Source of the DNA: a virus
Length of the DNA: 64,000 bases
Virus record (IMG/VR): IMGVR_UViG_3300035034_000924
Span: 1-64,000 of that record
Strand: one strand, 5' to 3'
In this document: in pieces, positions 1,128-61,517 of the stretch
Layout of the letters: every line of letters starts with the position of its first letter
Position numbering within the stretch: the stretch's first letter is position 1
Notes under the pieces: model-generated
Told to the model about the DNA's origin: nothing
What the model saw: only the letters and a program-made list of their open reading frames with translations
Databases searched by the model: none
Made by a program: the position numbers and the translations under genes

Positions 1128-1532
1128 ATGGAATTCAATCACCCAGCTATCAACGCAATGACACTGAGCGCACTGCTAATATCTATATGGGTAATGCTGG
1201 TTATCTTGTATAAGCCCATCAAACATCTGTACAGATACCACTTTCACAGAGAGAGTCGAGGCGTGGAGAGGCGGGTAACCGATAGGAGGACTTGCGACGG
1301 GGCAGAAGCGCACTTCTGCAGTGATTATGCAGACGTTTGCAAAAAACATAATATGCTGGTTGATTCCGGCAGAGATGGGATACCTTATGTGGCGAGAGTT
1401 GACCCAGAGCTACTGCGGCATTATCTTGGGGCTCTCGCAGATGACGTAGATACAGACGTAAAAAGGTTGGCGACCTATGGCACAGAAAAAAGAAACAAGA
1501 CAGAAAGAAGAAAAGCAGTCCGGCAAAACTAA
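1128..1532 (+). CDS. hypothetical membrane-anchored protein
   Basis: N-terminal hydrophobic helix LSALLISIWVMLVIL. Confidence 0.6.
   Translation: MEFNHPAINAMTLSALLISIWVMLVILYKPIKHLYRYHFHRESRGVERRVTDRRTCDGAEAHFCSDYADVCKKHNMLVDSGRDGIPYVARVDPELLRHYLGALADDVDTDVKRLATYGTEKRNKTERRKAVRQN
1328..1341. repeat. dispersed palindrome, 1 mismatch
   Basis: TGCAGACGTTTGCA. Confidence 0.75.
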
Positions 1533-2268
1533 GCGGCTGATCGACTGCGAACCCGTCAGGACAGTGCGGGTAATAAGGCAAGTAATATACAAGTGCTTCA
1601 ACTACGCACACTCCCACCTAGACCGCGAAAGTGCGTACAAGTGCATGTTGGTCCAAGTAAACCCTGAACAGTTTCGTAAAGCCGAAAAGAAGCAACTACC
1701 CCGAAAACTTAAGAAACTTACGATGTCTGAAGAAGAGGCTGAAGATAGCGGGGAGGTCAATTTCATCTGGCCAGATACCGGAGAACCGTCTGAGGCTGCA
1801 GAAGATACCCCGTACGAACAAACTCCTGCACCACCTAGACGCCCAAACTGGTCGCACCCTAGCCGAGTTACTTTCGTACGAGACGAAGCACCCCTGTACG
1901 GGGTCCGTATCGGCATGATGAATATTGCTATGCGGACTAGGGACAGGGTAGTAGACGTAGCGCATTACCTGAGACGCAGAGATATAGATATACCTGATCT
2001 AATCAGAGGATGGCAATACTTCTATTGTGCGGTTATCGTCAGGATACCGCACGAAACTGATCCACGGAGAGGTAGGCGTACCGTCGTTATAGGTTCTATA
2101 TGGGATTGGGAAGAAGACACCCCTTTCACGCTACCCGCGCTACGCCTAAGGGAAAACTTTTCGGGTTTCGATAACAGCCCGCAAATAGATCGACCTGAGA
2201 CCAATATTATGCGCATACCTGAAAACACTATCCGTGCAATATACGTACTCGATAGCGCTGCTGACTAG
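1477..2268 (+). CDS. hypothetical protein
   Basis: 263-aa ORF overlapping the previous gene. Confidence 0.65.
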   Translation: MAQKKETRQKEEKQSGKTKRLIDCEPVRTVRVIRQVIYKCFNYAHSHLDRESAYKCMLVQVNPEQFRKAEKKQLPRKLKKLTMSEEEAEDSGEVNFIWPDTGEPSEAAEDTPYEQTPAPPRRPNWSHPSRVTFVRDEAPLYGVRIGMMNIAMRTRDRVVDVAHYLRRRDIDIPDLIRGWQYFYCAVIVRIPHETDPRRGRRTVVIGSIWDWEEDTPFTLPALRLRENFSGFDNSPQIDRPETNIMRIPENTIRAIYVLDSAAD

Positions 2269-2277
2269 CACCCAAAC

Positions 2278-2291
2278 TGCAAACGTTTGCA
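2278..2291. repeat. dispersed palindrome, exact, intergenic
   Basis: TGCAAACGTTTGCA. Confidence 0.9.
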
Positions 2292-2309
2292 AACTAAGGA
2301 ACAGACCGA

Positions 2310-2564
2310 ATGGACCATAACGACAAGAAAGGCAATGACCAACTCAAAGCCATACACGCTATCTGGGTAGCTAGGGTAGGACTATCTGCAGCACCAGAGA
2401 CCCAGAAGCGGGAAATGAAAAAAGCATTCTACGCGGGGGCGCATACGATCTTATCGTTGTTGTTTAGCCCAAACGTAAACGAGGAAGATCTGGCGACTCT
2501 TCTAGAGAAGCTGAAAGAAGAGGCCAGCGAACATACGAAGGAATCTAAGGAGATACTGAATTGA
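2310..2564 (+). CDS. hypothetical protein
   Basis: AAGGA RBS; Q..EMKKAFYAGA motif seen in small phage proteins. Confidence 0.65.
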   Translation: MDHNDKKGNDQLKAIHAIWVARVGLSAAPETQKREMKKAFYAGAHTILSLLFSPNVNEEDLATLLEKLKEEASEHTKESKEILN

Positions 2565-3031
2565 TCGCAAAGAACGGGCAATATACCACCTACCCCGGAA
2601 ATGTGATAGAGCTAGTTGACCATGTCATCAACAATCGCAGACCTATGTACATTATCTGCCAGACACGCAATGAGCCGCCGCACCTTAGGTGGCTAGCGAA
2701 CTACTTCGATGACGTTGACTACTGGGTTCACCACGTATCATGGATGACCGAGAAAACCAGTAAAGCCAAAGACGGAGAGTGGATATCTGGCTTCCCGCAC
2801 GTTCACGACAGGGGAGCGGGGACGATAACTGCGATAACCTATCTGACCGAATGCGAAGGCGGGGAACTAGCCGTATGGAAAGAGGACGGCACTGAGATAG
2901 TTTACTCACCTAAACCGGGTCTGGTTGTGTTTACGGACGGGCAAGCCAAGCACGGCGTTAAGGCTGTTCGCGGGGGCGATCGGATGGCCATACACACAAC
3001 GGGGCATTTAGTGAAGAAAAGAAAGGTCTGA
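2561..3031 (+). CDS. 2OG-Fe(II) oxygenase family protein
   Basis: HxD (PHVHD), YL..CEGGEL, PKPG.VVF, distal H (KHGV) and R (GDRMA). Confidence 0.75.
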   Translation: MIAKNGQYTTYPGNVIELVDHVINNRRPMYIICQTRNEPPHLRWLANYFDDVDYWVHHVSWMTEKTSKAKDGEWISGFPHVHDRGAGTITAITYLTECEGGELAVWKEDGTEIVYSPKPGLVVFTDGQAKHGVKAVRGGDRMAIHTTGHLVKKRKV

Positions 3032-3035
3032 AAAA

Positions 3036-3701
3036 ATGAACTATATGGATGACTACGAAGATAAAATAAGCGAAATAAAAAATCGTAACATCGAGTACCA
3101 GATCCCAAGAAAACTTCAAGAAAGTTTCAGGGGCAAACCCTACTACGAAATGCTACTTATAATCTTCAAGTTACTAGACTCGTCTGGCATAGGAAGGGCG
3201 AGGTCGGTGGCTCTGCTTAAGGACTTGGGCAACAAACTGGATATAGTTATCCAAGAAAAAGTGGACGCAGCAATAGAACTTAGCACAGTCAAGATAAAGG
3301 GGCCTGCTGACGTCGAAGCCTACATATCTAGGCAAGTGACAAAAGCGATAGCAGCAAACGCAGACAGGCTGGAACGTAACATCGAAAAGCGACTGCGAGA
3401 AGAAATAGGCGAACAACTGCACAAAGAGTACAGGACACGCACTGCAGCTATAGAGGCCCGCTGCGAAGAAAGGTGTGAATACCTGCGTAAAATCAATACA
3501 TCCCTGACGGGTATCAACAAAAAGTTGCAAGGGGAGAATAACGTACTTCGGGATGCTTACGATCTTAAGAGAAAAAAAGGCGTGGGGATCATTAGAAAAC
3601 CCAAAGCTGCGCGGGTAGATTGGGTAAATACCTCGAAGCTAGATGATAGCTTCGACCAAAGTATCGTAGAAGAGTATTTTAAAGGGGTACACCATGAGTG
3701 A
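3036..3701 (+). CDS. hypothetical coiled-coil protein
   Basis: 221-aa ORF with heptad-like middle region. Confidence 0.65.
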   Translation: MNYMDDYEDKISEIKNRNIEYQIPRKLQESFRGKPYYEMLLIIFKLLDSSGIGRARSVALLKDLGNKLDIVIQEKVDAAIELSTVKIKGPADVEAYISRQVTKAIAANADRLERNIEKRLREEIGEQLHKEYRTRTAAIEARCEERCEYLRKINTSLTGINKKLQGENNVLRDAYDLKRKKGVGIIRKPKAARVDWVNTSKLDDSFDQSIVEEYFKGVHHE

Positions 3702-3933
3702 CTATATAGAGTTCGATTATGACAGTCTGGAGGCAGATACGTGCGAGGCGTTTCTGTTCATAACAGATTCAAACAAAGGGGATAAATTATGGGTCCCGAA
3801 AAGCGTAGTCGAACCTGTAGACAGGGAAGAGCTAGAGCACGAACTTCGTTTGGCGGAAGCTGATAACGGGATGACAGATGCGGGCTCTATTGAGATACTC
3901 GAATGGTTCGCAATTGATAAAGGGTTGGTTTGA
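3694..3933 (+). CDS. small acidic hypothetical phage protein
   Basis: AAGGGG RBS; W.PKS...I.EW.A..KGL pattern. Confidence 0.7.
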   Translation: MSDYIEFDYDSLEADTCEAFLFITDSNKGDKLWVPKSVVEPVDREELEHELRLAEADNGMTDAGSIEILEWFAIDKGLV

Positions 3934-4400
3934 TTATGGAAAGGTATTTAGTTTCGATATTGTTCGGGGCATTAGCGGCGTACGTGCTTCTTGTAATATC
4001 AGAAGTCGTAGGCGAGTACGCGTTTACCGCAATATGCGCGGGGCTTTTGTTCGGGGCATTTCTGGTAGTAATTAAAAACGTTTTTTCGGGGACACTGAGT
4101 GACCTCAGACAGGCGCACGAACAGGCTAAGCACAATGTCGAAGAAAGGCAGAAGGAAGTCGAGAGACTGCAGGGGGTTGTCCAAGGGTATCAGGCAGCAA
4201 TAGAAGCCAGCGCTAAGCTAGGAGGGTACGATGACGTCCTGTCCTATATGCGGGAAAACCCAGAAAGCCACGAATGGCTTATGATAATGGAAGAGAGTAT
4301 TTCTCGACTGTACGAGCTTGGTGCTTTAACCGACAAAGAAAGAAAGACGTTGGACATGACCCGTGTTATCGAAGAAGTGAAACGCGGCGGGCTGTTATGA
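3930..4400 (+). CDS. hypothetical protein with 2 TM helices and a coiled coil
   Basis: Two N-terminal hydrophobic helices. Confidence 0.65.
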   Translation: MIMERYLVSILFGALAAYVLLVISEVVGEYAFTAICAGLLFGAFLVVIKNVFSGTLSDLRQAHEQAKHNVEERQKEVERLQGVVQGYQAAIEASAKLGGYDDVLSYMRENPESHEWLMIMEESISRLYELGALTDKERKTLDMTRVIEEVKRGGLL

Positions 4401-4885
4401 ATATCGAAGAAGCAGTAACTAGGGGCGTGATTGAACTATGCGCCGAATGGAACGGAGGCAGACCTTTCACAGACGCATACGTGATGTCTGGCTTTGAAGG
4501 CACACTCGACCAAGCTATGGATGCACTTAGGCCATACATCGAGTTCTTAGAGGACAATGTGTCTAGGCTAGAGAACGGCATGGAAGCAATGACCGTCAAG
4601 CAGGCACTTACGGTAGTCCGCCACACTACGCCAGAAGCTCGTGAGGCGTCTTTCCGCTCTTCAAGCAACCATCATAGGGTAATACTCGAAACGCTCTCAG
4701 AAGGGCCTGTAAAGGGTATGACGGCGGAAGAGATCTCAGACAAATGCGGGCTTGACTACCACAAAGTCAATCGGCGTATGAGTGAACTGGAAAAGTCCCA
4801 GCAAATTAAACGTAGCTGCGTAGAAAGACAGCTTCGCTCCGGCAGGTATGGTGCCGTTTGGGTCTTGCAAACGTTTGCATCATGA
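4397..4885 (+). CDS. winged-HTH DNA-binding protein
   Basis: Start re-assigned to ATG 4397 (ATGA overlap); C-terminal GMTAEEIS..CGLDYHKVNRRMSELEK...R..RSGR...VW. Confidence 0.7.
   Translation: MNIEEAVTRGVIELCAEWNGGRPFTDAYVMSGFEGTLDQAMDALRPYIEFLEDNVSRLENGMEAMTVKQALTVVRHTTPEAREASFRSSSNHHRVILETLSEGPVKGMTAEEISDKCGLDYHKVNRRMSELEKSQQIKRSCVERQLRSGRYGAVWVLQTFAS
4866..4879. repeat. dispersed palindrome, exact
   Basis: TGCAAACGTTTGCA. Confidence 0.9.
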
Positions 4886-5042
4886 AATCCCACGAAGGCA
4901 GATCAATAGTTGCGGAGACGCTGGGCGAGAGCTGCCAGTACGGCGGGCCAGACTTCGACTACACCTACGACGAGAACAACATACAGAACCCTGACAGTGA
5001 TGACCCGCTAGACGAGCTTGTATGGGTTAGCAGGAAAAGAGG

Positions 5043-5234
5043 TTGGATGGCCAGCGATACTGGGACGACACAAACAAACTCCGAGACACTATAGACGATC
5101 AGATAAAAGAACGCAGAAAGCTGGAAGTCAAAATTGACGAATTGGAAGAGTACACCAAGCAACTAAAAGCACTGGCGGGCATACCCGACAGAAAACGAGT
5201 AGTAAGGACTAGGAGAGTAAGTAATGGCGAATAA
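5043..5234 (+). CDS. hypothetical coiled-coil protein
   Basis: Short ORF with Arg-rich tail, coupled to the next gene. Confidence 0.5.
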   Translation: MDGQRYWDDTNKLRDTIDDQIKERRKLEVKIDELEEYTKQLKALAGIPDRKRVVRTRRVSNGE

Positions 5235-5667
5235 AAACAACCCCACTGATAATGACTGCTACGACAAGGCAGAACTGGGCGAAGAGTATTTCGTGCTACT
5301 GGCCAGAGACGAGGCTGCCCCGCATGCGATACGAAAGTGGGTAGATACAAGGCTCATGCTAGGGCATAACGAACCGGACGATCAGCAAATCCAAGAGGCC
5401 CTCGATTGCGCTGTCAAAATGGACAACTGGCGTATAAAGAACGAAGTGCGCCTGAGCCTGAATGACGAAGAAGACAAAAAGAAAAGGCAGGCCCTGCGGG
5501 AGATTATATTGCGTAACGACCCATCAAAGGGAGCACCTTCATCTACCTTTTATGGGCTTCCGATTACCGAACTGTCTCGACAAGAACTGATGGCCATGAT
5601 CGAATGGCTTGGCGGGCAGAACCGGACTATGCGGGAACGGTATGACAACATGGCAAAAAAACTATGA
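5224..5667 (+). CDS. hypothetical phage protein
   Basis: AGGAG RBS; E..FVLLARD..AP motif. Confidence 0.75.
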   Translation: MANKNNPTDNDCYDKAELGEEYFVLLARDEAAPHAIRKWVDTRLMLGHNEPDDQQIQEALDCAVKMDNWRIKNEVRLSLNDEEDKKKRQALREIILRNDPSKGAPSSTFYGLPITELSRQELMAMIEWLGGQNRTMRERYDNMAKKL

Positions 5668-5966
5668 TCGTGGTGAAAGTAGAGATGTGGCCCGGAGGCA
5701 GCGAAAAAGGTAAGTACGAACTTTGCACCATGACCATGACCAACACGCCAAAACCGGGTGAGACAAGGTCAGCAGATCCAGCAGTTGGGGACTATGAAAT
5801 AAAGTTATTCAGAAGACCTAACGTGCATGGGCATTCGGCAGATATTAGAAAGTGGAAACCGATACGCTTCGGTACAGTTAAAAGGCACCGCCGCAGGGAT
5901 TACCATGTAATGGTGCTAGTCCGCAAAGCTCTGACATCCCTAGGCATGGACAAGTACATAGGGTAG
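5664..5966 (+). CDS. hypothetical phage protein
   Basis: ATGA overlap; MIVVKVEMWPGG N-terminus. Confidence 0.7.
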   Translation: MIVVKVEMWPGGSEKGKYELCTMTMTNTPKPGETRSADPAVGDYEIKLFRRPNVHGHSADIRKWKPIRFGTVKRHRRRDYHVMVLVRKALTSLGMDKYIG

Positions 5967-6000
5967 TATCTCTTAAGGGTAAATACATTCAGGTTGGCGC

Positions 6001-7182
6001 ATGAAAAACTTCGATAGCTACGATTTCAGCTGGGAAACGTATCGCACTGCGATAAAGCACTACAGGCACGCAATAAAACGTAACCCTGATTTCTTTGATG
6101 AAGTAGAGACTTCCGTGAAAGACTTTCATGATATGGACCTGTTCCGGTTCCTGCTACTAGAAGCGATACTAGGTACGGACACGAACGGTGTAGTAGAAAG
6201 GCATCGTATACGGAACTTCAACCCTGTGGAACCGTTCAACACGCTAGAGATGGACTTCAATAGTTTTGGTCTGGTAGGGCGGAATGCACTAGAAGTAAAA
6301 GATAGGGCACACGCAGAAAACTACTACATCAAGCACACCGATAGGCATATCATATTCCCTGAATCGGCAGACCTAGTTCAAGAGCTGATAGAAGCTAACT
6401 ACGCACTGGATGGTTTTGTTCTTGACGAGACGATAAACAGCGGGCTGATTATGATGCCGAAAGGAGCTTTAGTAGATGGGCACCAAAGACACTCCGTAGG
6501 CTTCTGTATCGCTTCCTCTTACGAACTGACTCGGGCCTTCGTAGATGATATGTGCGAATCCATTACGCCTCGGCACAGGAAAGATTTCGGCACCATTAGT
6601 GATGCGCTTTACGACGCTATAACTAAAAAGGAAGAGCAGGACGCAAGACAATTCCATGAAAAATCTCTGACACTAATGTCAGCTAACATGGCGCATACCA
6701 TAGCTGTCAAAGACATCCCAAGCGTACTGAGTACTCCAACAGACCAACTAGATGCGCAATGGGCTGAGCACTACGGCAGAAGCATACACGAGCTGGTAGA
6801 AGAGATTAAGGTCGTAATATCCATCTTGGTCTACATACAGGCGCTAGGCGAAGACGTGCTAGTTGATGGCTTCCCTAAAGGGGAGACTGTAAACAAACAA
6901 CGTTTTCGGGCACCACAATCATTATCTGGCCCGCCCAAAGCAATATGCCTTAAAGGACCCAAGCGGACAGGCAAGAAAGTGAAGGGTCACTACCGAAGGT
7001 TCCACTTCCGTACGCTCACTGACGAACGCTATTACCAAAACGAGCACGCGAACAAACCAAGAGGCTCTAGGGTTGTGTTCGTGAGTCACTCGCTTGTGGC
7101 AGCTAAGAATGTGAGCCCACATGTTCTGACAGACGGTACTGAAAACGAAAGCAAAGTAGTAGAATTAGAAAATAACGAATAG
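6001..7182 (+). CDS. hypothetical protein (393 aa)
   Basis: Long ORF; C-terminal HYRRFHFR motif. Confidence 0.75.
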   Translation: MKNFDSYDFSWETYRTAIKHYRHAIKRNPDFFDEVETSVKDFHDMDLFRFLLLEAILGTDTNGVVERHRIRNFNPVEPFNTLEMDFNSFGLVGRNALEVKDRAHAENYYIKHTDRHIIFPESADLVQELIEANYALDGFVLDETINSGLIMMPKGALVDGHQRHSVGFCIASSYELTRAFVDDMCESITPRHRKDFGTISDALYDAITKKEEQDARQFHEKSLTLMSANMAHTIAVKDIPSVLSTPTDQLDAQWAEHYGRSIHELVEEIKVVISILVYIQALGEDVLVDGFPKGETVNKQRFRAPQSLSGPPKAICLKGPKRTGKKVKGHYRRFHFRTLTDERYYQNEHANKPRGSRVVFVSHSLVAAKNVSPHVLTDGTENESKVVELENNE

Positions 7183-7193
7183 AGGTTGGCACT

Positions 7194-7442
7194 ATGAGAG
7201 TTAAGAGAAAGCACGTCCCGAGCACTTTTCAGCGCAAAGGTATAGGGGTAGGCGGGCGACCGCTTAAGCCACTGAAGGAGATGCTAAGGCAGTACTTGTC
7301 GCCTAGTTCACCTTTGTACCGAGACGCGGATCTATACAGTAACTGTATAGCTCTGGCGTACACGGAAGAGGAAATACGCTTCTGCCGTAACTTCGTAGAG
7401 AAGAAACTGGAAGAGCAGGCAACAAAGAAGTTTGCAGGGTAA
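7194..7442 (+). CDS. hypothetical protein
   Basis: GAGG RBS. Confidence 0.55.
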   Translation: MRVKRKHVPSTFQRKGIGVGGRPLKPLKEMLRQYLSPSSPLYRDADLYSNCIALAYTEEEIRFCRNFVEKKLEEQATKKFAG

Positions 7443-7444
7443 GC

Positions 7445-7509
7445 CCTGATAGGACCGACCGAGAGAGTGGTTTCATTGCCCTACACTACTTTCGGTACGT
7501 CCTATCAGG
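7445..7509. other. long imperfect intergenic hairpin
   Basis: CCTGATAGGAC(7445-55)/GTCCTATCAGG(7499-7509) outer stem plus inner ACCGAGAG/CTTTCGGT pairing. Confidence 0.7.
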
Positions 7510-7525
7510 CAACTTGTGTATCACT

Positions 7526-7554
7526 TTGCAATGAATGTATCTAAAGGCTAATAT
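7526..7554 (+). promoter_or_regulatory. sigma70-like promoter
   Basis: TTGCAA-17 nt-TAATAT; similar to the sites at 42261 and 44830. Confidence 0.6.
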
Positions 7555-7585
7555 AGTTTCAGGGCAATCAGAAAGGCACGTACCA

Positions 7586-8233
7586 ATGGACGAATATTAC
7601 AAATACGAAAACGGCGCACTAGTTGTTGTAGATGGGGTAGTCGTAGAAAAACCTAAGAAACGCCGTACGTTTGTGCGTAAGCGCAGAGATGATTCCGACC
7701 AGCACTTGGTTGACCTGCGGGCGCAGGAGATAGCCAAGGAGTATAAGGAACAATTCCAAACTGACCTAGACTTCTACCGTGAGCAGGTAAGTGAACTAGA
7801 AGTCGAACTCTACAACAAAGATATCAGGATCTCTAGCCTAAAAGAAGATATTACAACTATAGGCAAGCAGCTCACACGAGAGCGTGAAAATACGCACCGA
7901 AACATTAGCCACTTTAGTTCGGTAGACCCAGTAACTGAAATCATGAGCTTCATCAAAGACGCCTACCGAGATGGCGTGTACAACATGCTGGACAAAGTAG
8001 ATGAGCTTTACTTCCGCAACCAGCCCGCGACTGCCGGACCGTGGGGCAGCGACAATGAAGATGTCGAAGTGGTATCGGACACCGAAATCGAATTTATGAT
8101 AACAAACTACGTCTCCAGCGCTTTGCGGGACAAAGGCCTTAGCAGAGAAGTGAGACGGAAAGCTAAACGAATCGCGGAAAGTATTAAGGCGGATGAAGAA
8201 GAGACTAAAGATGAGGTAGGAGGTTCGTGGTGA
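7586..8233 (+). CDS. hypothetical coiled-coil protein
   Basis: Start re-assigned from 7535 to ATG 7586 (GAAAGG RBS, downstream of the promoter). Confidence 0.65.
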   Translation: MDEYYKYENGALVVVDGVVVEKPKKRRTFVRKRRDDSDQHLVDLRAQEIAKEYKEQFQTDLDFYREQVSELEVELYNKDIRISSLKEDITTIGKQLTRERENTHRNISHFSSVDPVTEIMSFIKDAYRDGVYNMLDKVDELYFRNQPATAGPWGSDNEDVEVVSDTEIEFMITNYVSSALRDKGLSREVRRKAKRIAESIKADEEETKDEVGGSW

Positions 8234-8523
8234 TAGACGTATGGGAACTAACCCCAAAACAGGTAGCTCAGGAATTCGAGAAGATCACAGGCAAAACCCT
8301 GTACGATACGGAGTACTTGTTCTCTATCATGGCGCTAGATTACGTGTCTGTGAATTGGTTTTCGGACACAGGGGTATGGTACGCGGATATGGGCGGTTTC
8401 AGATTCTGGCATGTTAACCTTAGTACCGCCATTGGCATGGTATACATCTACAACAGACTACGGAATCAAAGCAGTGAGCGACCAAAAAGGAAAAGAAGAG
8501 CAAGGCGCAAAGCGTCAAGTTAG
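8227..8523 (+). CDS. hypothetical protein
   Basis: GGAGG RBS; Arg-rich C-terminus. Confidence 0.65.
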   Translation: MVIDVWELTPKQVAQEFEKITGKTLYDTEYLFSIMALDYVSVNWFSDTGVWYADMGGFRFWHVNLSTAIGMVYIYNRLRNQSSERPKRKRRARRKASS

Positions 8524-8989
8524 GCGACCTAAGCGGGCAGAGGAAAAGATACCTGTAGGGACTTTGATAAAAGAGCTGACCCGCAGAGTCGAAGACATGG
8601 CCATAAAGATCGACCAGCAGTCGGATGAGATACGTGAACTACAAGCGGATAAAGAGGCACACACCCACTACATAAAAAGGTTGCTGAAACGTAACACCCT
8701 CCAAACCAGCTTATATTCATTAGCTAGGCAAAGGCTAGGCCAAGGCCAGAGTCTCAGACAGGTGGTGGATAGGTTCTTCAGTTCTTCAGAGAATGCCTCG
8801 GCGTTTGATGCGTTCACTCTAGATAGATTCTTGCAAACGTTTGCAATATCTGTTTCAGACGAAGACCCTTTAGATATAGACATAGAAAACGTAATAGAGA
8901 ACGGTGTCGAATTCGGGAGTGAAGACGAACACCCAGATCTCAGCAACCCGCTGCAAGATGTATTGGATTCAGAAGAGGACGATGGATAA
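8411..8989 (+). CDS. hypothetical coiled-coil protein (true start probably further downstream, e.g. GTG 8474)
   Basis: ORF; acidic C-terminus; TAATG junction with the next gene. Confidence 0.6.
   Translation: MLTLVPPLAWYTSTTDYGIKAVSDQKGKEEQGAKRQVRRPKRAEEKIPVGTLIKELTRRVEDMAIKIDQQSDEIRELQADKEAHTHYIKRLLKRNTLQTSLYSLARQRLGQGQSLRQVVDRFFSSSENASAFDAFTLDRFLQTFAISVSDEDPLDIDIENVIENGVEFGSEDEHPDLSNPLQDVLDSEEDDG
8831..8846. repeat. dispersed palindrome, full 16-mer
   Basis: TTGCAAACGTTTGCAA. Confidence 0.9.
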
Positions 8990-10221: not shown

Positions 10222-10478
10222 TGCAGACTTACGTAGCACTTTGTATCATCGAGCGGGCTAACACACCAGAGGCGCTGGCCCAGATCCGAGTAGAAGCAGA
10301 ATCCATGGATGAGGCCCGACAAACAATCGTACAGCACGAGTGGGACGGGGTGCTAGGCATACAAGGCAAGTACACAATACGGATACCCCAGATAGGGCTG
10401 CTTGAAGATATGCGCACTTTGCGGGCAGAGCCTAAGCCACAGAGAAGGCGTCCAAGAAGGAGAACGAATGTTAATTGA
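10221..10478 (+). CDS. hypothetical protein
   Basis: TAATG coupling; Arg-rich tail. Confidence 0.65.
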   Translation: MQTYVALCIIERANTPEALAQIRVEAESMDEARQTIVQHEWDGVLGIQGKYTIRIPQIGLLEDMRTLRAEPKPQRRRPRRRTNVN

Positions 10479-11215: not shown

Positions 11216-11594
11216 CGGTGGTAGCAACGCCCCGAGAGAAAGGTGTATATGTAGATATTGTGTACGAAAATACGCTAAGGCGCGGAAACGAAAAGCTCTG
11301 GGAGAGATACAAGATTGGCAGATGCCTCCCAGTGGTAGGTTCACGTTACGCAGGCGGATCAGTAAATACAAAAGGCCGCCTAAGTGCCCGCATTGCGGGA
11401 GCACCAATATTAGGTCTGACGAAGGTAACAGGAGAAAGGAGAAACAGGCCCAAGATCTTTGCTACTGTAACCCAATACCTTTTCCTCACCAGAAAGGTAC
11501 TATACTGGGTTGCATACATCACCCAAAAGAAGAATGGACTGAAGACGATTTTATGCAATACGATAATATGATGCGAACGCCTAGGACAGAGTGA
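11208..11594 (+). CDS. Cys-rich zinc-finger-like protein
   Basis: CICRYC, CPHC and CYC...H..G...C clusters. Confidence 0.6.
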   Translation: MGSGGSNAPRERCICRYCVRKYAKARKRKALGEIQDWQMPPSGRFTLRRRISKYKRPPKCPHCGSTNIRSDEGNRRKEKQAQDLCYCNPIPFPHQKGTILGCIHHPKEEWTEDDFMQYDNMMRTPRTE

Positions 11595-53460: not shown

Positions 53461-54438
53461 TTGGATGCCAAAGGAATAGAAGAGCTGCTAAAAGAAGCAG
53501 ACGCACAGGACATAAAAAAAGAAGGCCAATGGGTCATGTCTCGCTGCCCGTTCTCTCCGTATGAGAGGGCGCACAGGTTCCGCATGGAACGCAACAGATC
53601 CTTTGGTGTTTCGGTGCACGATAACGATGGCAAGTTCTCCGTGTACAACTGCTTCACTTGCAAGGCGCAGGGGACACTCAAGAACCTGTTCGAGAGATTG
53701 GCTTCATTGCAAGGCGAGGACTATGACGAAATCATAGAAGGCCTAGACGTTAGTGAGGAACTAGGCGGACCACTGGGTAAGTTCAAGGAAGCGGGTAAAA
53801 GGGTAGAGGAACAGGCACCAGAACCGATCAGCAAAATGCACGAGGACCTGTACGACCCTTGCCCAGAAGACCACCCGTACCTAGAGACACGCGGGATCAC
53901 TGCAGAGACATGCAAACGTTTGCAACTTAAGATTGACGAGTCAGACAAGGATGGCGACGAAAGAATACTGTTCCCTGTATGGGATGACCTCGGTAACTTT
54001 TTTGGGTACAGCGGCAGAGCAGTGCATGAAGACCACGTAGGGCCTAAAGTGCGGGACTACTTCGGGTTAGCAAAGAGAGCATGCTTACTGGGGTCACATC
54101 TACACGAGGGGGAGGGAGTTGTGTTATTGACCGAAGGCCTTCTCGACTACGCTAGGGGACAGGAACTAGGCTACTTTACGGTAGCCACGATGCACTCAGG
54201 CTTGACTGACTACCAAGCCAAGATACTGATAAGGATGAGCCTGCCCGTCTACGGTTTCCTAGACAACGATGCAGCGGGCAGGGAGGGTAATCTGATGGCG
54301 GCTAAAAAGATATCACCGCACCTACCCTTCATGGCGGTACGCTGGCCGAAAGGCATAGAAGATCTAGGAGACACAGCAATAACTGAACGCATGATCGACC
54401 GAATGGTGGACAAAGCACAAATTTACCGAATCCAATAG
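53461..54438 (+). CDS. DNA primase (Zn finger plus TOPRIM)
   Basis: CPF...H...CFTC, YL..RGI, FP......F.GYSGR, EG..D, DND.AG. Confidence 0.9.
   Translation: MDAKGIEELLKEADAQDIKKEGQWVMSRCPFSPYERAHRFRMERNRSFGVSVHDNDGKFSVYNCFTCKAQGTLKNLFERLASLQGEDYDEIIEGLDVSEELGGPLGKFKEAGKRVEEQAPEPISKMHEDLYDPCPEDHPYLETRGITAETCKRLQLKIDESDKDGDERILFPVWDDLGNFFGYSGRAVHEDHVGPKVRDYFGLAKRACLLGSHLHEGEGVVLLTEGLLDYARGQELGYFTVATMHSGLTDYQAKILIRMSLPVYGFLDNDAAGREGNLMAAKKISPHLPFMAVRWPKGIEDLGDTAITERMIDRMVDKAQIYRIQ
53911..53924. repeat. dispersed palindrome, exact
   Basis: TGCAAACGTTTGCA. Confidence 0.9.
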
Positions 54439-54449: not shown

Positions 54450-54791
54450 ATGAACGAGTTGATTACTCAACAAAAAGAAAGATCAAAATCACTGGCTCCG
54501 GCCATTGTTGATCTAATTGAAAAGGGAAAACCTGCCGCATTGGCACTCACAGCAGTACATGTGAAGAAAAGCAGATACCCGAAGCCAGTTATGTTTATAG
54601 TGCCCATGGACCACTTCGGTGGTTCTAGGAAAGAAGCTCTATTCGCCCTTCAAGGCGGGTTCAGCGAGGTACTAGATATGCACAACCCTGACCCGGTCAG
54701 GTTATGGAAAGTGGGACTGACAACCAACGCGGCCAAGGCCTTAATTAAAATGATCCGCGAAGTCGTGGATAGTAAAACGGAGATAGTTTAA
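54450..54791 (+). CDS. hypothetical protein
   Basis: ORF in the replication module. Confidence 0.65.
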   Translation: MNELITQQKERSKSLAPAIVDLIEKGKPAALALTAVHVKKSRYPKPVMFIVPMDHFGGSRKEALFALQGGFSEVLDMHNPDPVRLWKVGLTTNAAKALIKMIREVVDSKTEIV

Positions 54792-56026
54792 TGAGTAGAA
54801 GAGCAGGACGTTCATCTGGTTCAAGCAGCAGAGGTTCAAGCAGCAGAGGTCGCGGTGCATCCAGAGTAGGCGGGGGCGGTAGCAGAGGCCCAGCTGAAAG
54901 TTCAAGAGGGAGTGGTGCTTCGCAATCCAGAGGTCAGGGCCGCCCGCAGAATCGAGCGGTATATACTGGCGAGGAAGGACGCCGTCAGGCGGAGCGGGAA
55001 AAGGAATCTATCAGTAAGCGCAGAGAGGAATCAAAGAACAGAACATTCGAGCCTTTCCGTTTCTACATGCTGCCTGAGACTGAACGCGAAATTGTCGTGC
55101 TCGATGATGACTTCGGTTTCTTCCGGTACGAACACGCCGTTATGAATCCAGACACTGGGCGGGCAGACAGGTACTTTCCTTGCCTCGATCACAAAAATGG
55201 CTGTCAGATTTGTAAGCAGCTGGATAAGAACTACCCCTACTACGCGATGTACGCCAGCGTCATTGATCTTGAAGGCTACGAAAGCAAGAGCCAAGGCTGG
55301 GTCGAGTGGTCACGTAAGATGTTCTTGGTTAAGTCGGGTATGCAACAGCGCTGGTTCAGAGAGGTTGATCGACTCAAGCGGGACAGCCCTGACGCGCCAT
55401 TGCGGGGTGCAGTATTCCGTCTATTCAGGGATGGAACTTCTGACCCTAAGACAGGCAGCGATATCGAGTTCATCGAATACATGGACGAAGACGAACTGAA
55501 GACCTACGAAAGGGAGTACGAGGACAGGGACCGTAAAGTTCAGGTAGAAGATTGTTCAGTGCCGTTTGACTACATGGCAATCTACCCAGAGCTTACCGAG
55601 CAAGACATTGGTTCTGCCTTAAACCTCCGACCGTCCGAGCCAGTGGCAGGCTCCCGCCGTTCGCAGTCACAGGAACCGGACTATGACGATGGTGCCGAAG
55701 CGTACGAGGACGAAGATCCTGAGTACGAAGAAGACGGTGATCTTGACGAACAGTGGAACGAAGACGAAGCTTACGAGGGTGAGGAAGAGGCCGAGGGTGA
55801 GGAAGAAGAGCCCCCTTTCGACGTAGACGATCCTGTTGACGATGAGCCTAAAGGCAGATCACGCAGGACTGCGGGCAAGCCTCGTACGCGTTCCACAGCA
55901 GCTGAAGAGAATGATGAGTCAGGCCGAAGGGCTACCTCGGGTTCTAGACGATCTGCAGGCGGAGCCGCTCGACCTAGGGCGAAAGCAGCACCTCGCGGGA
56001 ATGCCCGGAATACGCGGCGCAGATAG
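54791..56026 (+). CDS. putative single-stranded DNA-binding protein
   Basis: EH...C....C.IC Zn site and a long acidic tract; RG/RS-rich termini. Confidence 0.6.
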   Translation: MSRRAGRSSGSSSRGSSSRGRGASRVGGGGSRGPAESSRGSGASQSRGQGRPQNRAVYTGEEGRRQAEREKESISKRREESKNRTFEPFRFYMLPETEREIVVLDDDFGFFRYEHAVMNPDTGRADRYFPCLDHKNGCQICKQLDKNYPYYAMYASVIDLEGYESKSQGWVEWSRKMFLVKSGMQQRWFREVDRLKRDSPDAPLRGAVFRLFRDGTSDPKTGSDIEFIEYMDEDELKTYEREYEDRDRKVQVEDCSVPFDYMAIYPELTEQDIGSALNLRPSEPVAGSRRSQSQEPDYDDGAEAYEDEDPEYEEDGDLDEQWNEDEAYEGEEEAEGEEEEPPFDVDDPVDDEPKGRSRRTAGKPRTRSTAAEENDESGRRATSGSRRSAGGAARPRAKAAPRGNARNTRRR

Positions 56027-56027
56027 T

Positions 56028-57695
56028 ATGAGTGAGTTACCCAAACAAGGGTTGCGTGGGATGGCGGCTGTCGAGGGCAGCCGTCGTTCCTTAAGCGCAA
56101 TAGCCGAGCAGCTACACTGGATAGACTACGATCCTGTGGAAGATGTAAGCGAAGAGAAAGACGAATGCGTTGCAGATGGAGACACTCTGTACGTGCCTAG
56201 GGGTTTTGCCAGATCTAGCTTGGGCGCGTACAAAGTTTCTTGTCTTTATGATCTAGAGTATGGCTGGGAGATACAGACACCTTTCTTCCCAGAGCTGCGG
56301 GAGTACCAAGAAGATCCAGTAGAGGCAGCAACACAAGCCCTGCTCTCATACCACGATGTAATCCTAAAAGCATACACGGGTTCCGGTAAGACAGTTATGG
56401 CCACAAGTGTAGCCGCTCAGTTAGGCGTTACTACTCTGATAATCGTGGACCAGAACAAGTTGGCTAGGCAATGGGAAGAGACCCTGATAAACCACTTCGG
56501 TTACAAGAAGGAAAGGATCGGCAGGATACAGGGGCCGCAAGATAAGTGGGACTACGAAGACAAAGACTTCACCATAGCGATGGTCCAATCTATCTACGAC
56601 AAGGAACTGGATGATGATCTGCTAGAGTACTTTGGTATGCTTATCGTTGACGAGTACCATTCGGTAGGGGCAGAGCAATACAGCAACGTGTTCCAGATGT
56701 TCCCTACGGCCTACCGATTATCTGTGTCGGCTACGGACAGAAACGATAGTCGTAAGAAGGTGGTCCGTTGGCACCTATGCGCCCAAGAAGTTGCACTTGA
56801 TAAGCAGCACCAAAAGTCTACGGTGCGGGTTATCGAATACAAAGGGCCACCACCAAGCTACTACAGCCAGCTATCCAAGAAAGACGGCAGGTACATCTCT
56901 GAGCTTGTCGAGGACGGCGATAGAAACCTTTTCATAGCAGAGCACATAGTTAAGCTTTACGAGGCGGGCAGGACACTGCTAGTGATAGGGGCTAGAATCC
57001 ATCACCTAGAATGCCTACATGCTTTGTGCCGCATGTTAGGTATTCCTTACGAAGACATGCTGATGTACACAGGCAGCACCAATTCTTGGAGGTACGTTAA
57101 GGACAAAAACCCGGCACGTACTCCGAGCGGGTGGGAAGACGGCACAGAGTTCACGCCAATTAAGAAAGAGCTTAAACTGAAGAAAACCAAGCTCCATGAG
57201 CTGGACGCCTTCTTAAACATAACACCTATAATTTTCTCGACCTACTCAGCATTCTCTAAGGGCGTAGACGTACCAGAGCTGGACACGGGGATAGACGTCA
57301 CACCCAAGGCTACGTTCGTGCAGATCCACGGTAGAATCCTACGTTTGTATAGTGGCAAGAAAAAGCCTATATGGGTTACAATAAGAGACTATAACTCCTT
57401 CCGCGCCGAGTACCAGCTGAGCGGAAGGCTAAAAGAATTCAGTAAATCAAACGTGGAGGTCGTAAAATGGCATCGGCACAAAGGTCTCGCAGACCAAAAA
57501 ATAGACGAACTGCGGCAAGCAACCCTGCGGCGGAGCGAGAGGATAAAAGACGCAAGGATCATAACCGGAGAAGACGGGAGAAATTTGCTTCTAGCCCCGC
57601 CTACAGGGAGCACATCAACAGCGAACAGAAGCGCAGGTACTGGGAGAGTAAGGAAGAAGCAGAAGCAACCGAACTCACAGAGGGACTTATTCTAG
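56028..57695 (+). CDS. superfamily II (DExH) helicase
   Basis: LREYQ, TGSGKT, DEYH, SAT, GVDVP.LD, Q.HGRILR; start re-assigned to ATG 56028. Confidence 0.9.
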   Translation: MSELPKQGLRGMAAVEGSRRSLSAIAEQLHWIDYDPVEDVSEEKDECVADGDTLYVPRGFARSSLGAYKVSCLYDLEYGWEIQTPFFPELREYQEDPVEAATQALLSYHDVILKAYTGSGKTVMATSVAAQLGVTTLIIVDQNKLARQWEETLINHFGYKKERIGRIQGPQDKWDYEDKDFTIAMVQSIYDKELDDDLLEYFGMLIVDEYHSVGAEQYSNVFQMFPTAYRLSVSATDRNDSRKKVVRWHLCAQEVALDKQHQKSTVRVIEYKGPPPSYYSQLSKKDGRYISELVEDGDRNLFIAEHIVKLYEAGRTLLVIGARIHHLECLHALCRMLGIPYEDMLMYTGSTNSWRYVKDKNPARTPSGWEDGTEFTPIKKELKLKKTKLHELDAFLNITPIIFSTYSAFSKGVDVPELDTGIDVTPKATFVQIHGRILRLYSGKKKPIWVTIRDYNSFRAEYQLSGRLKEFSKSNVEVVKWHRHKGLADQKIDELRQATLRRSERIKDARIITGEDGRNLLLAPPTGSTSTANRSAGTGRVRKKQKQPNSQRDLF

Positions 57696-58021
57696 ATGGC
57701 GAACTGAAAGAAGTAGTTTGCCCAGAGGACCCAGACATAGAACCTACAACGGTGAACGCTTACACGTTACGGGAAGCAGCTGATGCACTGGGCAAGTCTT
57801 ATCTTACCGTAAGGGCGTGGGCCAAGAACGGGCTGTTCCCTAAGTCAATACTGACAGACACCACATACAACTACGATCAGTACAGCCAAGGTGAGCTTGA
57901 AGCCATTGTCGGGATACTCGATGAGCATTTCAGAAAGCATAGCCAGCTGCAAAAGAACCACACTGAAGTTTGCGAACGTTTGCAAACCGCGATGGATGAG
58001 TACCGCGAAGAGTACATCTAA
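57467..58021 (+). CDS. MerR-like HTH DNA-binding protein
   Basis: YTLREAADALGKS..TVRAW...GL.P. Confidence 0.7.
   Translation: MASAQRSRRPKNRRTAASNPAAEREDKRRKDHNRRRREKFASSPAYREHINSEQKRRYWESKEEAEATELTEGLILDGELKEVVCPEDPDIEPTTVNAYTLREAADALGKSYLTVRAWAKNGLFPKSILTDTTYNYDQYSQGELEAIVGILDEHFRKHSQLQKNHTEVCERLQTAMDEYREEYI
57970..57985. repeat. dispersed palindrome, 1 mismatch
   Basis: TTGCGAACGTTTGCAA. Confidence 0.85.
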
Positions 58022-59604: not shown

Positions 59605-59999
59605 TGAGTAGGCAGCACTTTTTGGATAGGATGGAGCAGCGGGACAAGAAAAATAAAACAAAGCAATCCCCTGCTCACCAGCGGTCTATAAAACAAGAGG
59701 CCGAGCTGGCCCAGAGAGGTGCGGGCAAACTTACCGTAGGCAGCGGGAACAAAAGAGAGAAAGGCGATATCAAGAAGTACCATGGGGTTTTCCGAGTGGA
59801 AGCTAAAACCACGACTAAGAAGTCGTTCTCCATAACCCAAGCTATGCTGGATAAGATAGAGGATGCCAGCATACCGCACGGTGAAGCCCCCGCCTTTATA
59901 ATTGAATTCATAAACGAAGACCAGACACCTCTTCGAGAAGTGGCCGTTATCCCCAGCTACTTACTCGAAGTACTGGCAGACAGGTTGCGGGATGAGTAG
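59604..59999 (+). CDS. PD-(D/E)XK nuclease / Holliday junction resolvase-like
   Basis: QE..LA....G....GSG....KGD.......VEAK.T. Confidence 0.7.
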   Translation: MSRQHFLDRMEQRDKKNKTKQSPAHQRSIKQEAELAQRGAGKLTVGSGNKREKGDIKKYHGVFRVEAKTTTKKSFSITQAMLDKIEDASIPHGEAPAFIIEFINEDQTPLREVAVIPSYLLEVLADRLRDE

Positions 60000-60939
60000 A
60001 GAGGTAATATCCACAAGACGGGTTAAGAAGTCCGGTATAGATCTGCCTAGGAAAACGAAGAAGCGTATCCGCGATGTCCCCAGTACGCCACGCGCACAGG
60101 CAGTTAGTAGTTCGGTGAACAACCAGCACACCCCACTAAACCGAGACAACCCAATCGCGTCTACTCTTTGGCGGGGTCCTCAGCTAAGAGCTGCGCGTAA
60201 CGGTACTCGACTGCATGTATCGGATCTAATCGGTAAGTGCATGCGCATGAAGGCGCTATCCCATCTAAGAAAAGTACCTTTGCCTGCCCAGCAGCTCTGG
60301 GATGCGCAGAGGATTACTTTCGATATCGGTGAGACAATCGGCAACTTTGTGGTTAACAAGGCCATGGAGAATGACGGTAGGATCTTCGGGTCTTGGGGTT
60401 GCCACTGCGCGGAGCAGAAGACTACCGCTAACTGCACGAGAGCGGAGGCACTAGACAGCCCTGCTTGCCCAGACTGCGGGCACAAGTACGACAGATACTT
60501 AGAGGTAGATCTGTATCACGAAGAGCTTATGCTAGCAGGACACGCCGACCTAGGCATGATGTGGGACGAATATGTATACCTGACAGAAGTAAAGTCGGCT
60601 AACGCCAACACAATGCAGGACTACGAAAACCGACCCAACAGAGAGCACGTCCTGCAGCTAATCTTCTACTACTGGCTAGCGCTTCAACAAGGTATACGAG
60701 TGCATACGACGGGGTCAGTACTGTACGTTAGAAAAGAATGGATGATAGGCTCTCCGTATGTAGAGCACCAGATAAACCTAGAAGAAGAAGTACATCTATT
60801 GGAGCCGTATCTGGAAGAAGCGCGGCAATACACGGAAGCAATGAAGGGCGGGGCGTTACCTACTAGAACAGTATGTGACACCCCTTACGAAACCAGAGCA
60901 ACCAAGTGCATGCTTTGCATGGAATGTTTTAAGGACTAA
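59992..60939 (+). CDS. Cas4/AddB-like exonuclease
   Basis: N-terminal C.R, GH.D, EVKS, Q...Y, C-terminal C...C..C...C. Confidence 0.75.
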   Translation: MSREVISTRRVKKSGIDLPRKTKKRIRDVPSTPRAQAVSSSVNNQHTPLNRDNPIASTLWRGPQLRAARNGTRLHVSDLIGKCMRMKALSHLRKVPLPAQQLWDAQRITFDIGETIGNFVVNKAMENDGRIFGSWGCHCAEQKTTANCTRAEALDSPACPDCGHKYDRYLEVDLYHEELMLAGHADLGMMWDEYVYLTEVKSANANTMQDYENRPNREHVLQLIFYYWLALQQGIRVHTTGSVLYVRKEWMIGSPYVEHQINLEEEVHLLEPYLEEARQYTEAMKGGALPTRTVCDTPYETRATKCMLCMECFKD

Positions 60940-60941
60940 AA

Positions 60942-61517
60942 ATGCCACGAGCGAGAAGACAAAGAACAGAACCAGAGATGGAAGTTTCCGTGCTAGGAGT
61001 AGACCCGTCATCCAACGGTACAGGTATTGCTTTCCCCTCCGGTGTTACCGCTAGCTTGCCGCTTAACACGAACACGAAAAACGTGGCTAAAGGAAGTAAC
61101 CGGATTGTTAAAATAATGAACTGGTTAGACGGCTACGACTACTCCGACATTACACACGTCTGTATAGAAGGGTACGCGTTCGGCATGAAAGCACAGGCGG
61201 GTAACTACGATAGAGCGGAGCTGGTAGGTACGATGAAATTGTTCTTCCTGAAGAAAGGCAAGCCACTTATTATCTGCCCCCCCAGCACCCTGAAGAAGTT
61301 CGTCACAGGCAAAGGCAACGCAGATAAAGAAGAGATGGTTGACGCGGTATTCCAGAGGTGGGGTTACGATATACCCTGCCACGATGAGGCTGACGCCTTT
61401 GGACTTTCTATGTTTGGTGAGGCATGCTTAGGTTCCAAGGGTAGTAGCGAGCTTTTCGATAAAGCAGAGTACGTAGCTATAACAAGGCCCTTGCAAACAT
61501 TTGCATTTTTTGACTGA
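60942..61517 (+). CDS. RuvC-like Holliday junction resolvase
   Basis: LGVDPS..TG, IEGY, P.TLKKFVTGKGNA.K, D.ADA. Confidence 0.85.
   Translation: MPRARRQRTEPEMEVSVLGVDPSSNGTGIAFPSGVTASLPLNTNTKNVAKGSNRIVKIMNWLDGYDYSDITHVCIEGYAFGMKAQAGNYDRAELVGTMKLFFLKKGKPLIICPPSTLKKFVTGKGNADKEEMVDAVFQRWGYDIPCHDEADAFGLSMFGEACLGSKGSSELFDKAEYVAITRPLQTFAFFD
61492..61505. repeat. dispersed palindrome, 1 mismatch
   Basis: TGCAAACATTTGCA. Confidence 0.85.

Follow-up and report, generated by a model that had tools for sequence, protein, structure and literature searches.

An evenly spaced palindrome array along the genomes of a siphophage family and a candidate binding protein with a ParB/KorB-type fold

The DNA analyzed here is a 64,000-nucleotide (nt) stretch of a virus (hereafter, the window), comprising bases 1-64000 of the 85,398-bp IMG/VR virus record IMGVR_UViG_3300035034_000924 (G000). 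Copies of the 14-bp palindrome TGCAAACGTTTGCA are distributed evenly along the whole record, are selected as DNA, and recur with changing central bases in a family of large siphophages. We interpret the palindromes as operator-like or parS-like docking sites of one dimeric phage protein, most likely the 407-amino-acid (aa) product of the gene at 61619-62842 (hereafter, the KorB-like gene), and give this interpretation an even chance of being correct. The analysis establishes that the sites exist and are selected at the DNA level, evenly spaced, and present throughout the family; it also establishes the conservation and fold of the protein and the site-promoter-gene arrangement at its gene.

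In the window, TGCAAACGTTTGCA has 19 matches at up to two mismatches (10 exact, 8 with one mismatch, and 1 with two). The chance level, estimated from 100 dinucleotide-preserving shuffles, is 0.20 on average and 3 at most. The gaps between sites average 3342 bp, and the largest measures 6451 bp (14218 to 20669). A preliminary description of this DNA had listed the same copies at the same coordinates, with a mean spacing of about 3.3 kb and a largest gap of about 6.5 kb; all of this was reproduced. The flanking bases favor T on the left and A on the right, which extends the motif to the 16-mer TTGCAAACGTTTGCAA. Thirteen of the 19 sites lie within plus-strand open reading frames (ORFs) of at least 60 aa and are read in all three phases (6, 4, and 3 sites), giving the peptides LQTFA, CKRL, and ANVC/ADVC, again as first described; the other six lie in no such ORF. 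The sites of the window are as follows; coordinates are those of the 14-bp palindrome, and no strand is assigned.

1328-1341, one mismatch (TGCAGACGTTTGCA), within ORF 1128-1532
2278-2291, exact, intergenic; an ORF starts at 2310, 19 nt further on
4866-4879, exact, at the 3' end of ORF 4274-4885
8832-8845, exact, within ORF 8411-8989
10516-10529, one mismatch, within ORF 10402-10848
12094-12107, one mismatch, in the intergenic region 12074-12155
14218-14231, exact, intergenic; an ATG at 14234 follows 3 nt after the site end
20669-20682, exact, within ORF 20452-20973
25854-25867, exact, intergenic; begins 10 nt past a TATAAT box (found by eye), with an ORF at 25887 downstream
30041-30054, one mismatch, within ORF 29704-31440
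32982-32995, one mismatch, within ORF 32525-33211
38932-38945, exact, 41 nt inside ORF 38891-39208
42125-42138, one mismatch, intergenic; an AAA+ ATPase gene lies at 42289, 151 nt downstream
45406-45419, exact, intergenic; GGAG and an ATG follow immediately
46967-46980, two mismatches, within ORF 46560-47417
50411-50424, exact, within the PolA gene 49298-52810
53911-53924, exact, within the primase gene 53461-54438
57971-57984, one mismatch, at the 3' end of a MerR-like ORF; a gene at 58035 begins 51 nt later
61492-61505, one mismatch, putative autoregulatory operator, at the 3' end of the RuvC-like gene; positionally conserved upstream of the KorB-like gene

A scan of the complete record, one of the checks proposed in the preliminary description, yielded 29 sites at up to two mismatches, separated by gaps of 899-6451 bp. 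The gaps have a coefficient of variation (CV) of 0.46, a degree of evenness that 0 of 3000 random placements reached. Within ORFs, the record holds 21 sites, compared with a mean of 3.1 (maximum 8) in 100 synonymous-codon shuffles, which leave all protein sequences and the codon pool unchanged; therefore, synonymous positions are selected for the motif. Selection on the palindrome acts at the DNA level and not on the encoded protein, as had been argued from the reading frames. Non-coding DNA is touched by 8 of the 29 sites, although it accounts for 7.4% of all 14-nt windows (binomial p 9e-4). Coding and non-coding DNA were called with a longest-ORF heuristic and no gene finder. There is a 190-nt overlap between the longest ORFs of the gp32-like protein (54791-56026) and the helicase (55836-57695), and a 228-nt overlap between those of the helicase and the MerR-like protein; because translation probably starts further downstream, the ORF-based coding fractions are slightly too high. 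Outside the full sites, half-sites occur near the frequency expected from base composition (GTTTGCA, 14 versus 10.2), so the selected unit is the whole palindrome, and the lack of enrichment of half-sites alone fits an obligate dimer. The mismatches of imperfect sites fall in the left half 8 times and in the right half 11 times, with no orientation bias. One of the sites beyond the window (67653-67666, one mismatch) lies inside an unusually long, 946-aa terminase ORF (66716-69556).

Arrays of this type are a family trait. A megablast search with 12 kb of the window against a phage collection gave no match; what the relatives share with G000 is protein similarity only. The exact 16-mer is present in multiple copies in other viral contigs, whose core proteins are 25-45% identical to those of G000 with no DNA similarity (tblastn). 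The capsid protein and the AAA+ ATPase tie G000 to cultured siphophages of 79-110 kb at approximately 37-44% identity, and 37-88 kb of eight such phages and one plasmid record were sampled. Fourteen genome pieces (G000, G001, G002, G003, G005, PA_L9, HJ05, KarBoss, PJ32, DLP5, JP1, L338C, RcTiptonus, and the Rhizobium plasmid p7) carry an array of 15-53 sites each, consisting of an evenly spaced palindrome with TGCA arms and a lineage-specific center. Scanning related phages, likewise suggested at the outset, had this result. Hosts of the family include Agrobacterium, Rhizobium, Rhodobacter, Pseudomonas, Stenotrophomonas, Aeromonas, and Vibrio. An unbiased search in the eight larger genomes returned the array motif as the commonest 14-bp palindrome, far above the next unrelated one (25 versus at most 3 in G000; 53 versus at most 7 in G002). 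DNA-level selection, even spacing (CV 0.43-0.64), and enrichment in non-coding DNA hold for G000 and seven further genome pieces. The motifs of the cultured relatives and the plasmid are listed below.

Agrobacterium phage JP1: exact window motif, 23 sites in 50 kb
Pseudomonas phage PA_L9: TGCAARCGYTTGCA, 28 sites
Aeromonas phage HJ05: TGCAACYRGTTGCA, 23 sites
Vibrio phages KarBoss and PJ32: ATTAAT center, 43 sites and 15 sites (degenerate), respectively
Stenotrophomonas phage DLP5: TGCAATCAATTGCA, 17 sites
Rhizobium phage L338C: TGCAACNNGTTGCA, 27 sites
Rhodobacter phage RcTiptonus: TGCAATCGATTGCA, 27 sites
Rhizobium bangladeshense plasmid p7: TGCAACSSGTTGCA, 26 sites in 50 kb (NZ_CP071625.1, 25001-75000)

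Two loci of 7-12 kb each, L222 and L227, have no clear array and were entered as 'unknown' in the protein tree. A further contig, G004 (IMGVR_UViG_3300010366_000021), was rejected as a family array: its seven sites are clustered (CV 1.69), it has no protein match to G000, and it was excluded from later counts. This 40-kb contig of 57% GC with direct terminal repeats has its seven copies of the 14-mer near the ends, with 42 bp between two of them; the copies may represent an operator cluster of the ordinary kind, belonging to a different element. Several peculiarities were observed in individual arrays. In addition to its 53 normal sites, G002 has seven copies of a phase-shifted palindrome, ACGTTTGCAAACGT; its motif is a stretch of 10-bp periodic sequence in which TTTGCAAA is itself palindromic, and several of its sites directly follow sequences resembling tRNA 3' ends. 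The degenerate half of the site is one-sided relative to the coding strand in HJ05 (20:4), KarBoss (42:21), PJ32 (18:7), and G003 (3:14), and the center of L338C is TT 10 times and AA once. The plasmid p7 of strain PLR8-1a is circular, 109,431 bp long, and a complete phage genome of the family with replication-recombination synteny; therefore, a family member persists or co-purifies as a plasmid. DLP5 has been reported as a temperate phagemid (PMC5834331, PMC7326821). Given the DLP5 phagemid and the p7 assembly, a plasmid-like silent state is plausible for the family.

The best-supported candidate for the binder is the 407-aa protein, which the preliminary description had put forward as an H1-like protein alongside a ParB-like pair, a winged helix-turn-helix protein, and a MerR-like protein. 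An all-against-all comparison of seven genomes gave a universal core of DnaB, primase, the gp32-like protein, SF2 helicase, a 123-aa protein, RecA, a Cas4-like exonuclease, PolA, capsid, portal, and the 407-aa protein; RuvC, present in six of the seven, falls just outside. The winged helix-turn-helix protein (4274-4885) belongs to no family common to at least four of the panel genomes, and it is not supported as a binder. The 407-aa family was found in 7/7 panel genomes, in 15/15 further viral loci, and in PJ32, DLP5, JP1, L338C, RcTiptonus, and p7, and a full hidden Markov model search recovered 3380 protein-library representatives at E<=0.001. A word-indexed protein search with the central domain gave no match, and tblastn with this domain against the phage collection reached only 12 Pseudomonas phage records with 40% of the query covered, so that search is too weak to map the family. 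As a separate observation, the gp32-like protein (54791-56026) has Arg/Gly/Ser-rich N- and C-terminal tails.

The 407-aa protein consists of a small N-terminal domain, a helix-turn-helix (HTH) region at residues ~169-290, and a ribbon-helix-helix (RHH)-like C-terminal part at residues ~300-365. Its conserved helical core is flanked by H1-like runs of the type AKAKAAPKAK. Among the family, 14 of the 22 panel members and 52 of the 150 library hits have basic tails rich in K/A/P, and the N-terminal segments of the homologs differ from one another. The AlphaFold model of the G000 core (pLDDT 91) was compared with 48,161 PDB chains. The three top matches were the DNA-binding domain of ParB on parS (6s6h_B; Z 7.3, root-mean-square deviation 2.9, 99 residues aligned), KorB (8qa8_A, 6.7), and the DNA-binding domain of KorB on its operator (1r71_A, 6.4), followed by Spo0J (6.0), P1 ParB (5.0), and SopB (4.8). 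An independent model of the G002 homolog, which is 20% identical, again placed 6s6h_B first (Z 7.7, root-mean-square deviation 3.0, 100 residues aligned), with Spo0J at 6.5, KorB at 5.8 and 5.7, and VirB at 4.1. Residues 144-204 in the C-terminal part of the G002 model weakly match full-length RHH proteins (Z 3.7-4.1; Rv0298 4.1, ArtA 3.9, MazE9 3.9, and NikR 3.9), and the G000 model weakly matches the RHH protein Reg576 (Z 5.0); the RHH strand is not formed in either monomer model. The RHH-like C-terminal domain probably dimerizes. Pfam detects no ParB/Srx (CTPase) domain in the product of 61619-62842, and PF02195 matches the record only at 63653-63898. No ParA-type ATPase (PF01656, PF13614) was matched in the 85-kb record, which is an estimated 89% complete, under conditions in which control families matched in 14/14 genomes; no tyrosine integrase was found in this record.

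The surroundings of the KorB-like gene in the window, together with the genes of other proposed binders, are listed here.

61524-61552, plus strand, sigma-70-like promoter TTGACA-17-AATAAT (11/12), beginning 18 nt past site 61492
61619-62842, plus strand, candidate binder of 407 aa with an N-terminal domain, H1-like tails, a ParB/KorB-type HTH, and an RHH-like C-terminal part
62862-62893, plus strand, terminator-like hairpin and T run, closing a one-gene unit
62952-63650, plus strand, ParB N-terminal-type (ParB_N) domain protein (PHROG 620), a possible partner and unlikely site reader
63650-64000, plus strand, 5' part of the gene for a 493-aa protein that combines ParB_N-type domains with a methyltransferase-like part, extending beyond the window to 65131
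57467-58021, plus strand, MerR/Xis-like HTH protein, rival candidate binder, which probably starts only after the helicase stop at 57695

The KorB-like gene ends a module of RecA, resolvase, Cas4-like exonuclease, RuvC, and KorB-like genes, which is syntenic in the genomes whose annotation tables were read; in the remaining genomes, synteny rests on tblastn hits, some of them partial. Most sites in this module shift between genomes, and the site before the KorB-like gene stays. It ends 43-131 nt upstream of the gene in 10 of 13 genomes: G000 (114 nt), G002 (43), PA_L9 (104), HJ05 (131), KarBoss (121), JP1 (112), L338C (84), RcTiptonus (82), DLP5 (64), and p7 (94). In G001, the site lies upstream of an inserted AAA+ gene that precedes the KorB-like gene. 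The best sigma-70-like promoter of the 56-64 kb region of G000 sits between site 61492 and the KorB-like gene. A TTGAC-like hexamer was seen by eye 3-11, 18, or 28-29 nt past the site in most relatives, and the promoter scan flags four of these. Such a conserved site-promoter-gene arrangement is typical of DNA-binding proteins that regulate their own expression.

Promoter-like sequences adjoin other sites too. When 343 sites from 13 genome pieces were pooled, 57 adjoined a promoter-like sequence on the plus strand, compared with 19.7 for random placement and 10 on the minus strand. The pooled site centers peak near -50, -60, -70, and 0 to +10, and the offsets from site to -35 box are 8-10, 18-22, and 28-32 nt, i.e., steps of one helical turn. 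The phasing is clearest in KarBoss (12/43) and HJ05 (5/23). The placement of a minority of the sites resembles that of operators or activator sites; the others, more than 80%, lack such a placement and account for the even spacing. KarBoss (L216, ~900-12700 and 71-83 kb of the joined string) has near-identical early-type promoters (TTTACA-16/17-CATAAT), in which the palindrome ends 8-9, 18-19, or 28 nt upstream of the -35 box. The sites were rejected as sigma-54 promoters, -35-like promoter elements, or intrinsic terminators, the defining parts of which are absent by eye.

From this evidence, we infer binding, dimerization, autoregulation, spreading, and a biological purpose for the array. The preliminary description had supposed that one dimeric protein reads the sites; a dimeric site-specific protein is still the best reading, and the 407-aa protein is its most suitable carrier, being family-wide, having a ParB/KorB-type fold in two models, and having a site upstream of its gene in 10 of 13 genomes. 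The proposed dimer would join a ParB/KorB-type HTH, an RHH-like C-terminal domain, and K/A/P-rich H1-like tails, without the ParB CTPase domain. It probably controls its own promoter from site 61492, and its occupancy every ~3 kb would mark the whole phage chromosome. A minority of the relatives' sites stand at fixed helical phases upstream of sigma-70-like promoters or just past the -10 box, so the protein could act there as a transcription factor. The evenly spaced in-gene majority would most likely serve as nucleation points, from which the basic tails bind neighboring DNA; this covering role is suggested by analogy with KorB, ParB, and stoperator-bound repressors and by the basic tails. 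The outcome could be global dampening of transcription, damping of read-through, compaction and marking of phage DNA, or a contribution to its inheritance.

Several observations weigh against this assignment. At the level of the array, PJ32 has no site at up to two mismatches before its KorB-like gene, and the nearest site in G003 is 452 nt upstream. In G000, a recognizable promoter lies 3-39 nt downstream of only 1 of the 29 sites, namely that of the KorB-like gene itself. A second conserved HTH protein, the MerR/Xis-like one, exists. At the level of the fold, all matches are below the caution line of the tool (Z 8), and the RuBisCO factor Raf1 scores 5.3-7.1. Foldseek against the PDB gave nothing at E<=0.001, Pfam gave no ParB or KorB match for the 407-aa protein or 41 family members, and two profiles run against the PDB sequences retrieved no chain of ParB or KorB at E<=10. 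Therefore, we speak of a ParB/KorB-type fold and not of membership in that family; the central domain is modeled as a ParB/KorB-type DNA-binding fold, at fold level only. At the level of specificity, the presumed recognition helix YRKAMYLI is nearly invariant among phages with different motifs. In the protein tree, the window motif is spread over three separate clades, and motifs differ between close relatives; if only two or three half-site positions vary, recurrence of the same motif is to be expected. A search for residue-base covariation yielded no alignment column that follows the motif cleanly; column 44, with K/R where T is at position 6, is suggestive only. The variable RHH-like strand is a candidate specificity determinant.

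The second conserved HTH protein could itself be the reader. The MerR/Xis-like product of 57467-58021 has a basic N-terminal region followed by a winged HTH, and in this case the KorB-like protein would do something else. It had been named in the preliminary description, and it stays in contention as a rival with a small chance of being right. It matches MerR_1/HTH_17 and a PHROG 'transcriptional regulator' family, and a syntenic homolog is flanked by the SF2 helicase and 123-aa genes in 10 of 12 genomes (G000, G001, G003, HJ05, KarBoss, PA_L9, PJ32, DLP5, L338C, and RcTiptonus); JP1 has a MerR-like gene elsewhere. The copies diverge so fast that BLAST did not cluster them, as might be expected of changing specificity, and site 57971 lies within the 3' end of the ORF. 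However, the gene was not found in the helicase slot of G002, the genome with the densest array, the sites keep no constant distance from the gene, and no pattern in its HTH follows the motif by eye. MerR/Xis-type winged HTH proteins are not known to read arrays of dozens of sites. The MerR-like copies share a conserved basic N-terminal motif resembling RRRERY..DPEYR.

A host factor as the reader is unlikely. It might be a LacI/PurR-family repressor with the operator core GCAAACGTTTGC, a host regulator that the phage soaks up or borrows. The central CG and 16-bp symmetry fit LacI-family operators. In the parts of the literature at hand, the 12-mer core was printed only in papers on PurR/MalR/CcpA-type operators. 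The deeply diverged G000, G001, G002, G003/5, and JP1 share the same motif, as they would with a common host factor, and the motif does not follow the tree of the 407-aa protein. In contrast, the centers of other relatives lack CG (TTAA in two Vibrio phages, CA/TG in DLP5, and any dinucleotide in L338C), and motifs differ between Agrobacterium JP1 and Rhizobium L338C/p7, whose hosts are two genera of one bacterial family. The palindrome was to be regarded as a host element if equally abundant in the host chromosome; the exact 14-mer occurs in 5 of 151 genomes of an alphaproteobacterial order holding a Bradyrhizobiaceae metagenome-assembled genome, one copy each, and this order may not be that of the host. 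Five bacterial genomes chosen for holding the 16-mer have 1-2 copies in 3.6-7.4 Mb. In a genome-collection scan, none had more than two sites among the matches listed, and a host repeat element was rejected on this ground.

The ParB-like pair (62952-63650 and 63650-65131), also proposed early on, fared worse. The palindromes would then be loading sites of ParB_N proteins acting as CTP-type clamps, or the modification target of a fused methyltransferase that these domains direct to DNA. We consider this very unlikely. PHROG ParB-like matches reach E 1e-44, and PF02195 matches 63653-63898 at 24.9 bits, which is below its cut-off. PA_L9 and plasmid p7 share the clustering of ParB_N, ParB_N-methyltransferase, and methyltransferase genes, and in G000 this cluster directly follows the KorB-like gene. 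However, the pair has ParB N-terminal-type domains only: in the 232-aa ParB_N protein, neither an HTH nor any other domain that reads sequence was detected (Pfam none). ParB_N proteins were not found by BLAST in HJ05, one of seven genomes, with 5.8 kb of the HJ05 record outside the search. In G001, G002, and KarBoss, the ParB_N genes are far from the KorB-like gene and near the terminase gene. Modification targets, moreover, are not normally enriched and evenly spaced. The N-terminus of the ParB_N protein (62952-63650) reads MAARRRRRQ.

The least probable alternative is a nucleic-acid structure, i.e., an mRNA hairpin (a processing, stability, or translation signal before the ribosome-binding site) or a single-stranded DNA priming signal every ~3 kb: many intergenic copies lie 3-30 nt upstream of a Shine-Dalgarno sequence and ATG, most strikingly in G002, every site is transcribed because all genes run one way, and the spacing resembles Okazaki-fragment lengths, but the stem has only six weak pairs, G000 variants are not biased to G-U-compatible changes on the coding strand, about two thirds of the sites are inside genes in all three phases, and the would-be loop (the central 4 nt) is also palindromic in most lineages (ACGT, GCGC, CCGG, TTAA, and CGAT types), which makes a hairpin-only role unlikely because a dimeric protein needs such symmetry and a loop does not.

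If docking by the 407-aa protein is correct, a more far-reaching proposal can be entertained, although we hold it with little confidence. The orphan ParB-HTH/RHH protein with H1-like tails might nucleate at self-sites and spread or bridge, forming a phage-specific chromatin that tells phage from host DNA. This chromatin might silence the genome in the plasmid state and, in lytic growth, form a condensate that draws in replication, recombination, and packaging proteins with arginine-rich tails. The site center might then be an incompatibility or immunity code between co-infecting relatives.

Few elements are known to have operator arrays across the whole genome, namely RK2 with KorB, the cluster A mycobacteriophages with their stoperators, and N15. 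Here, the same array logic is a conserved trait of a large, widespread group of siphophages of Gram-negative bacteria, which includes cultured phages of Pseudomonas aeruginosa, Stenotrophomonas, Vibrio, Aeromonas, and rhizobia. The candidate reader represents an uncharacterized family that combines a ParB-type fold with H1-like tails and has no CTPase switch. If the proposed role is true, it would explain the regulation or packaging of ~90 kb transcribed in one direction, it might explain how some members persist as plasmids without an integrase or ParA, and the family would offer a series of natural, closely related pairs of protein and site that differ in specificity. It would also be relevant to phage therapy candidates, for which a hidden carrier state matters.

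Among known systems, one of the closest is the KorB-OB system of the IncP plasmid RK2 (PMC11790492). It is alike in having a 13-16 bp palindrome repeated over a mobile replicon, with some copies adjacent to promoters and others distant. Both would have a reader with a ParB-type HTH (KorB is among the top structural matches) that exerts global control over the genes of the element, including its own. The two differ in that KorB contains the N-terminal CTPase domain of ParB and acts together with IncC (ParA), KorA, and TrbA, whereas the phage protein lacks this domain, carries H1-like tails and an RHH-like end, and has no detectable sequence similarity to KorB; the record yielded no ParA. RK2 has about a dozen OB sites, compared with the 29 evenly spaced sites of G000.

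The ParB-parS, Noc-NBS, and VirB-virS systems (PMC10770331) resemble the array as follows: the best structural match of the candidate is the ParB DNA-binding domain on parS (6s6h), and they share the proposed principle of nucleation at a site with subsequent coverage of flanking DNA. In the phage, unlike in ParB-parS, there is no CTPase domain and no ParA, and there are far more sites per kb; these are spread genome-wide and not clustered at the origin, and the element is a phage and not a chromosome. parS is a 16-bp palindrome with a central ACGT, like the array motif.

The stoperators of cluster A mycobacteriophages likewise consist of dozens of copies of a short site across a phage genome, many in transcribed regions, for one phage protein that also controls early promoters. 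They are oriented and read by an immunity repressor; the sequence is described as asymmetric and the repressor as monomeric (PMC9283540). In contrast, the array site is a perfect palindrome with no orientation bias in G000 and even spacing, and the candidate protein has a different fold. Dispersed palindromes for one phage protein, with effects on gene expression, are reportedly also found in the SopB centromere sites of N15 and the conserved inverted repeats of phiC31. N15, a linear plasmid-prophage, is said to differ in having few sites and a complete SopAB system, and the sites of Streptomyces phage phiC31 are said to be bound by its immunity repressor. We know of no report that the sites of either are evenly spaced or family-wide with changing center bases. 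Finally, operators of the PurR/LacI family are printed with the identical 12-bp core GCAAACGTTTGC (PMC3159470, PMC4451989); they are few and stand before host operons, in contrast to 29 sites in 85 kb of phage DNA.

No paper was found that prints any array motif in a phage context. The main texts of those genome papers of relatives that were searched by term hold no mention of palindromes, and a general phrase search of the literature gave nothing relevant to phage palindrome arrays. The combination of a ParB/KorB-type fold and H1-like tails in one protein is not yet described. The array is set apart from known systems by the domain make-up of its candidate reader, by the lack of a CTPase domain or ParA, by its even spacing, and by the family-wide drift of its center bases.

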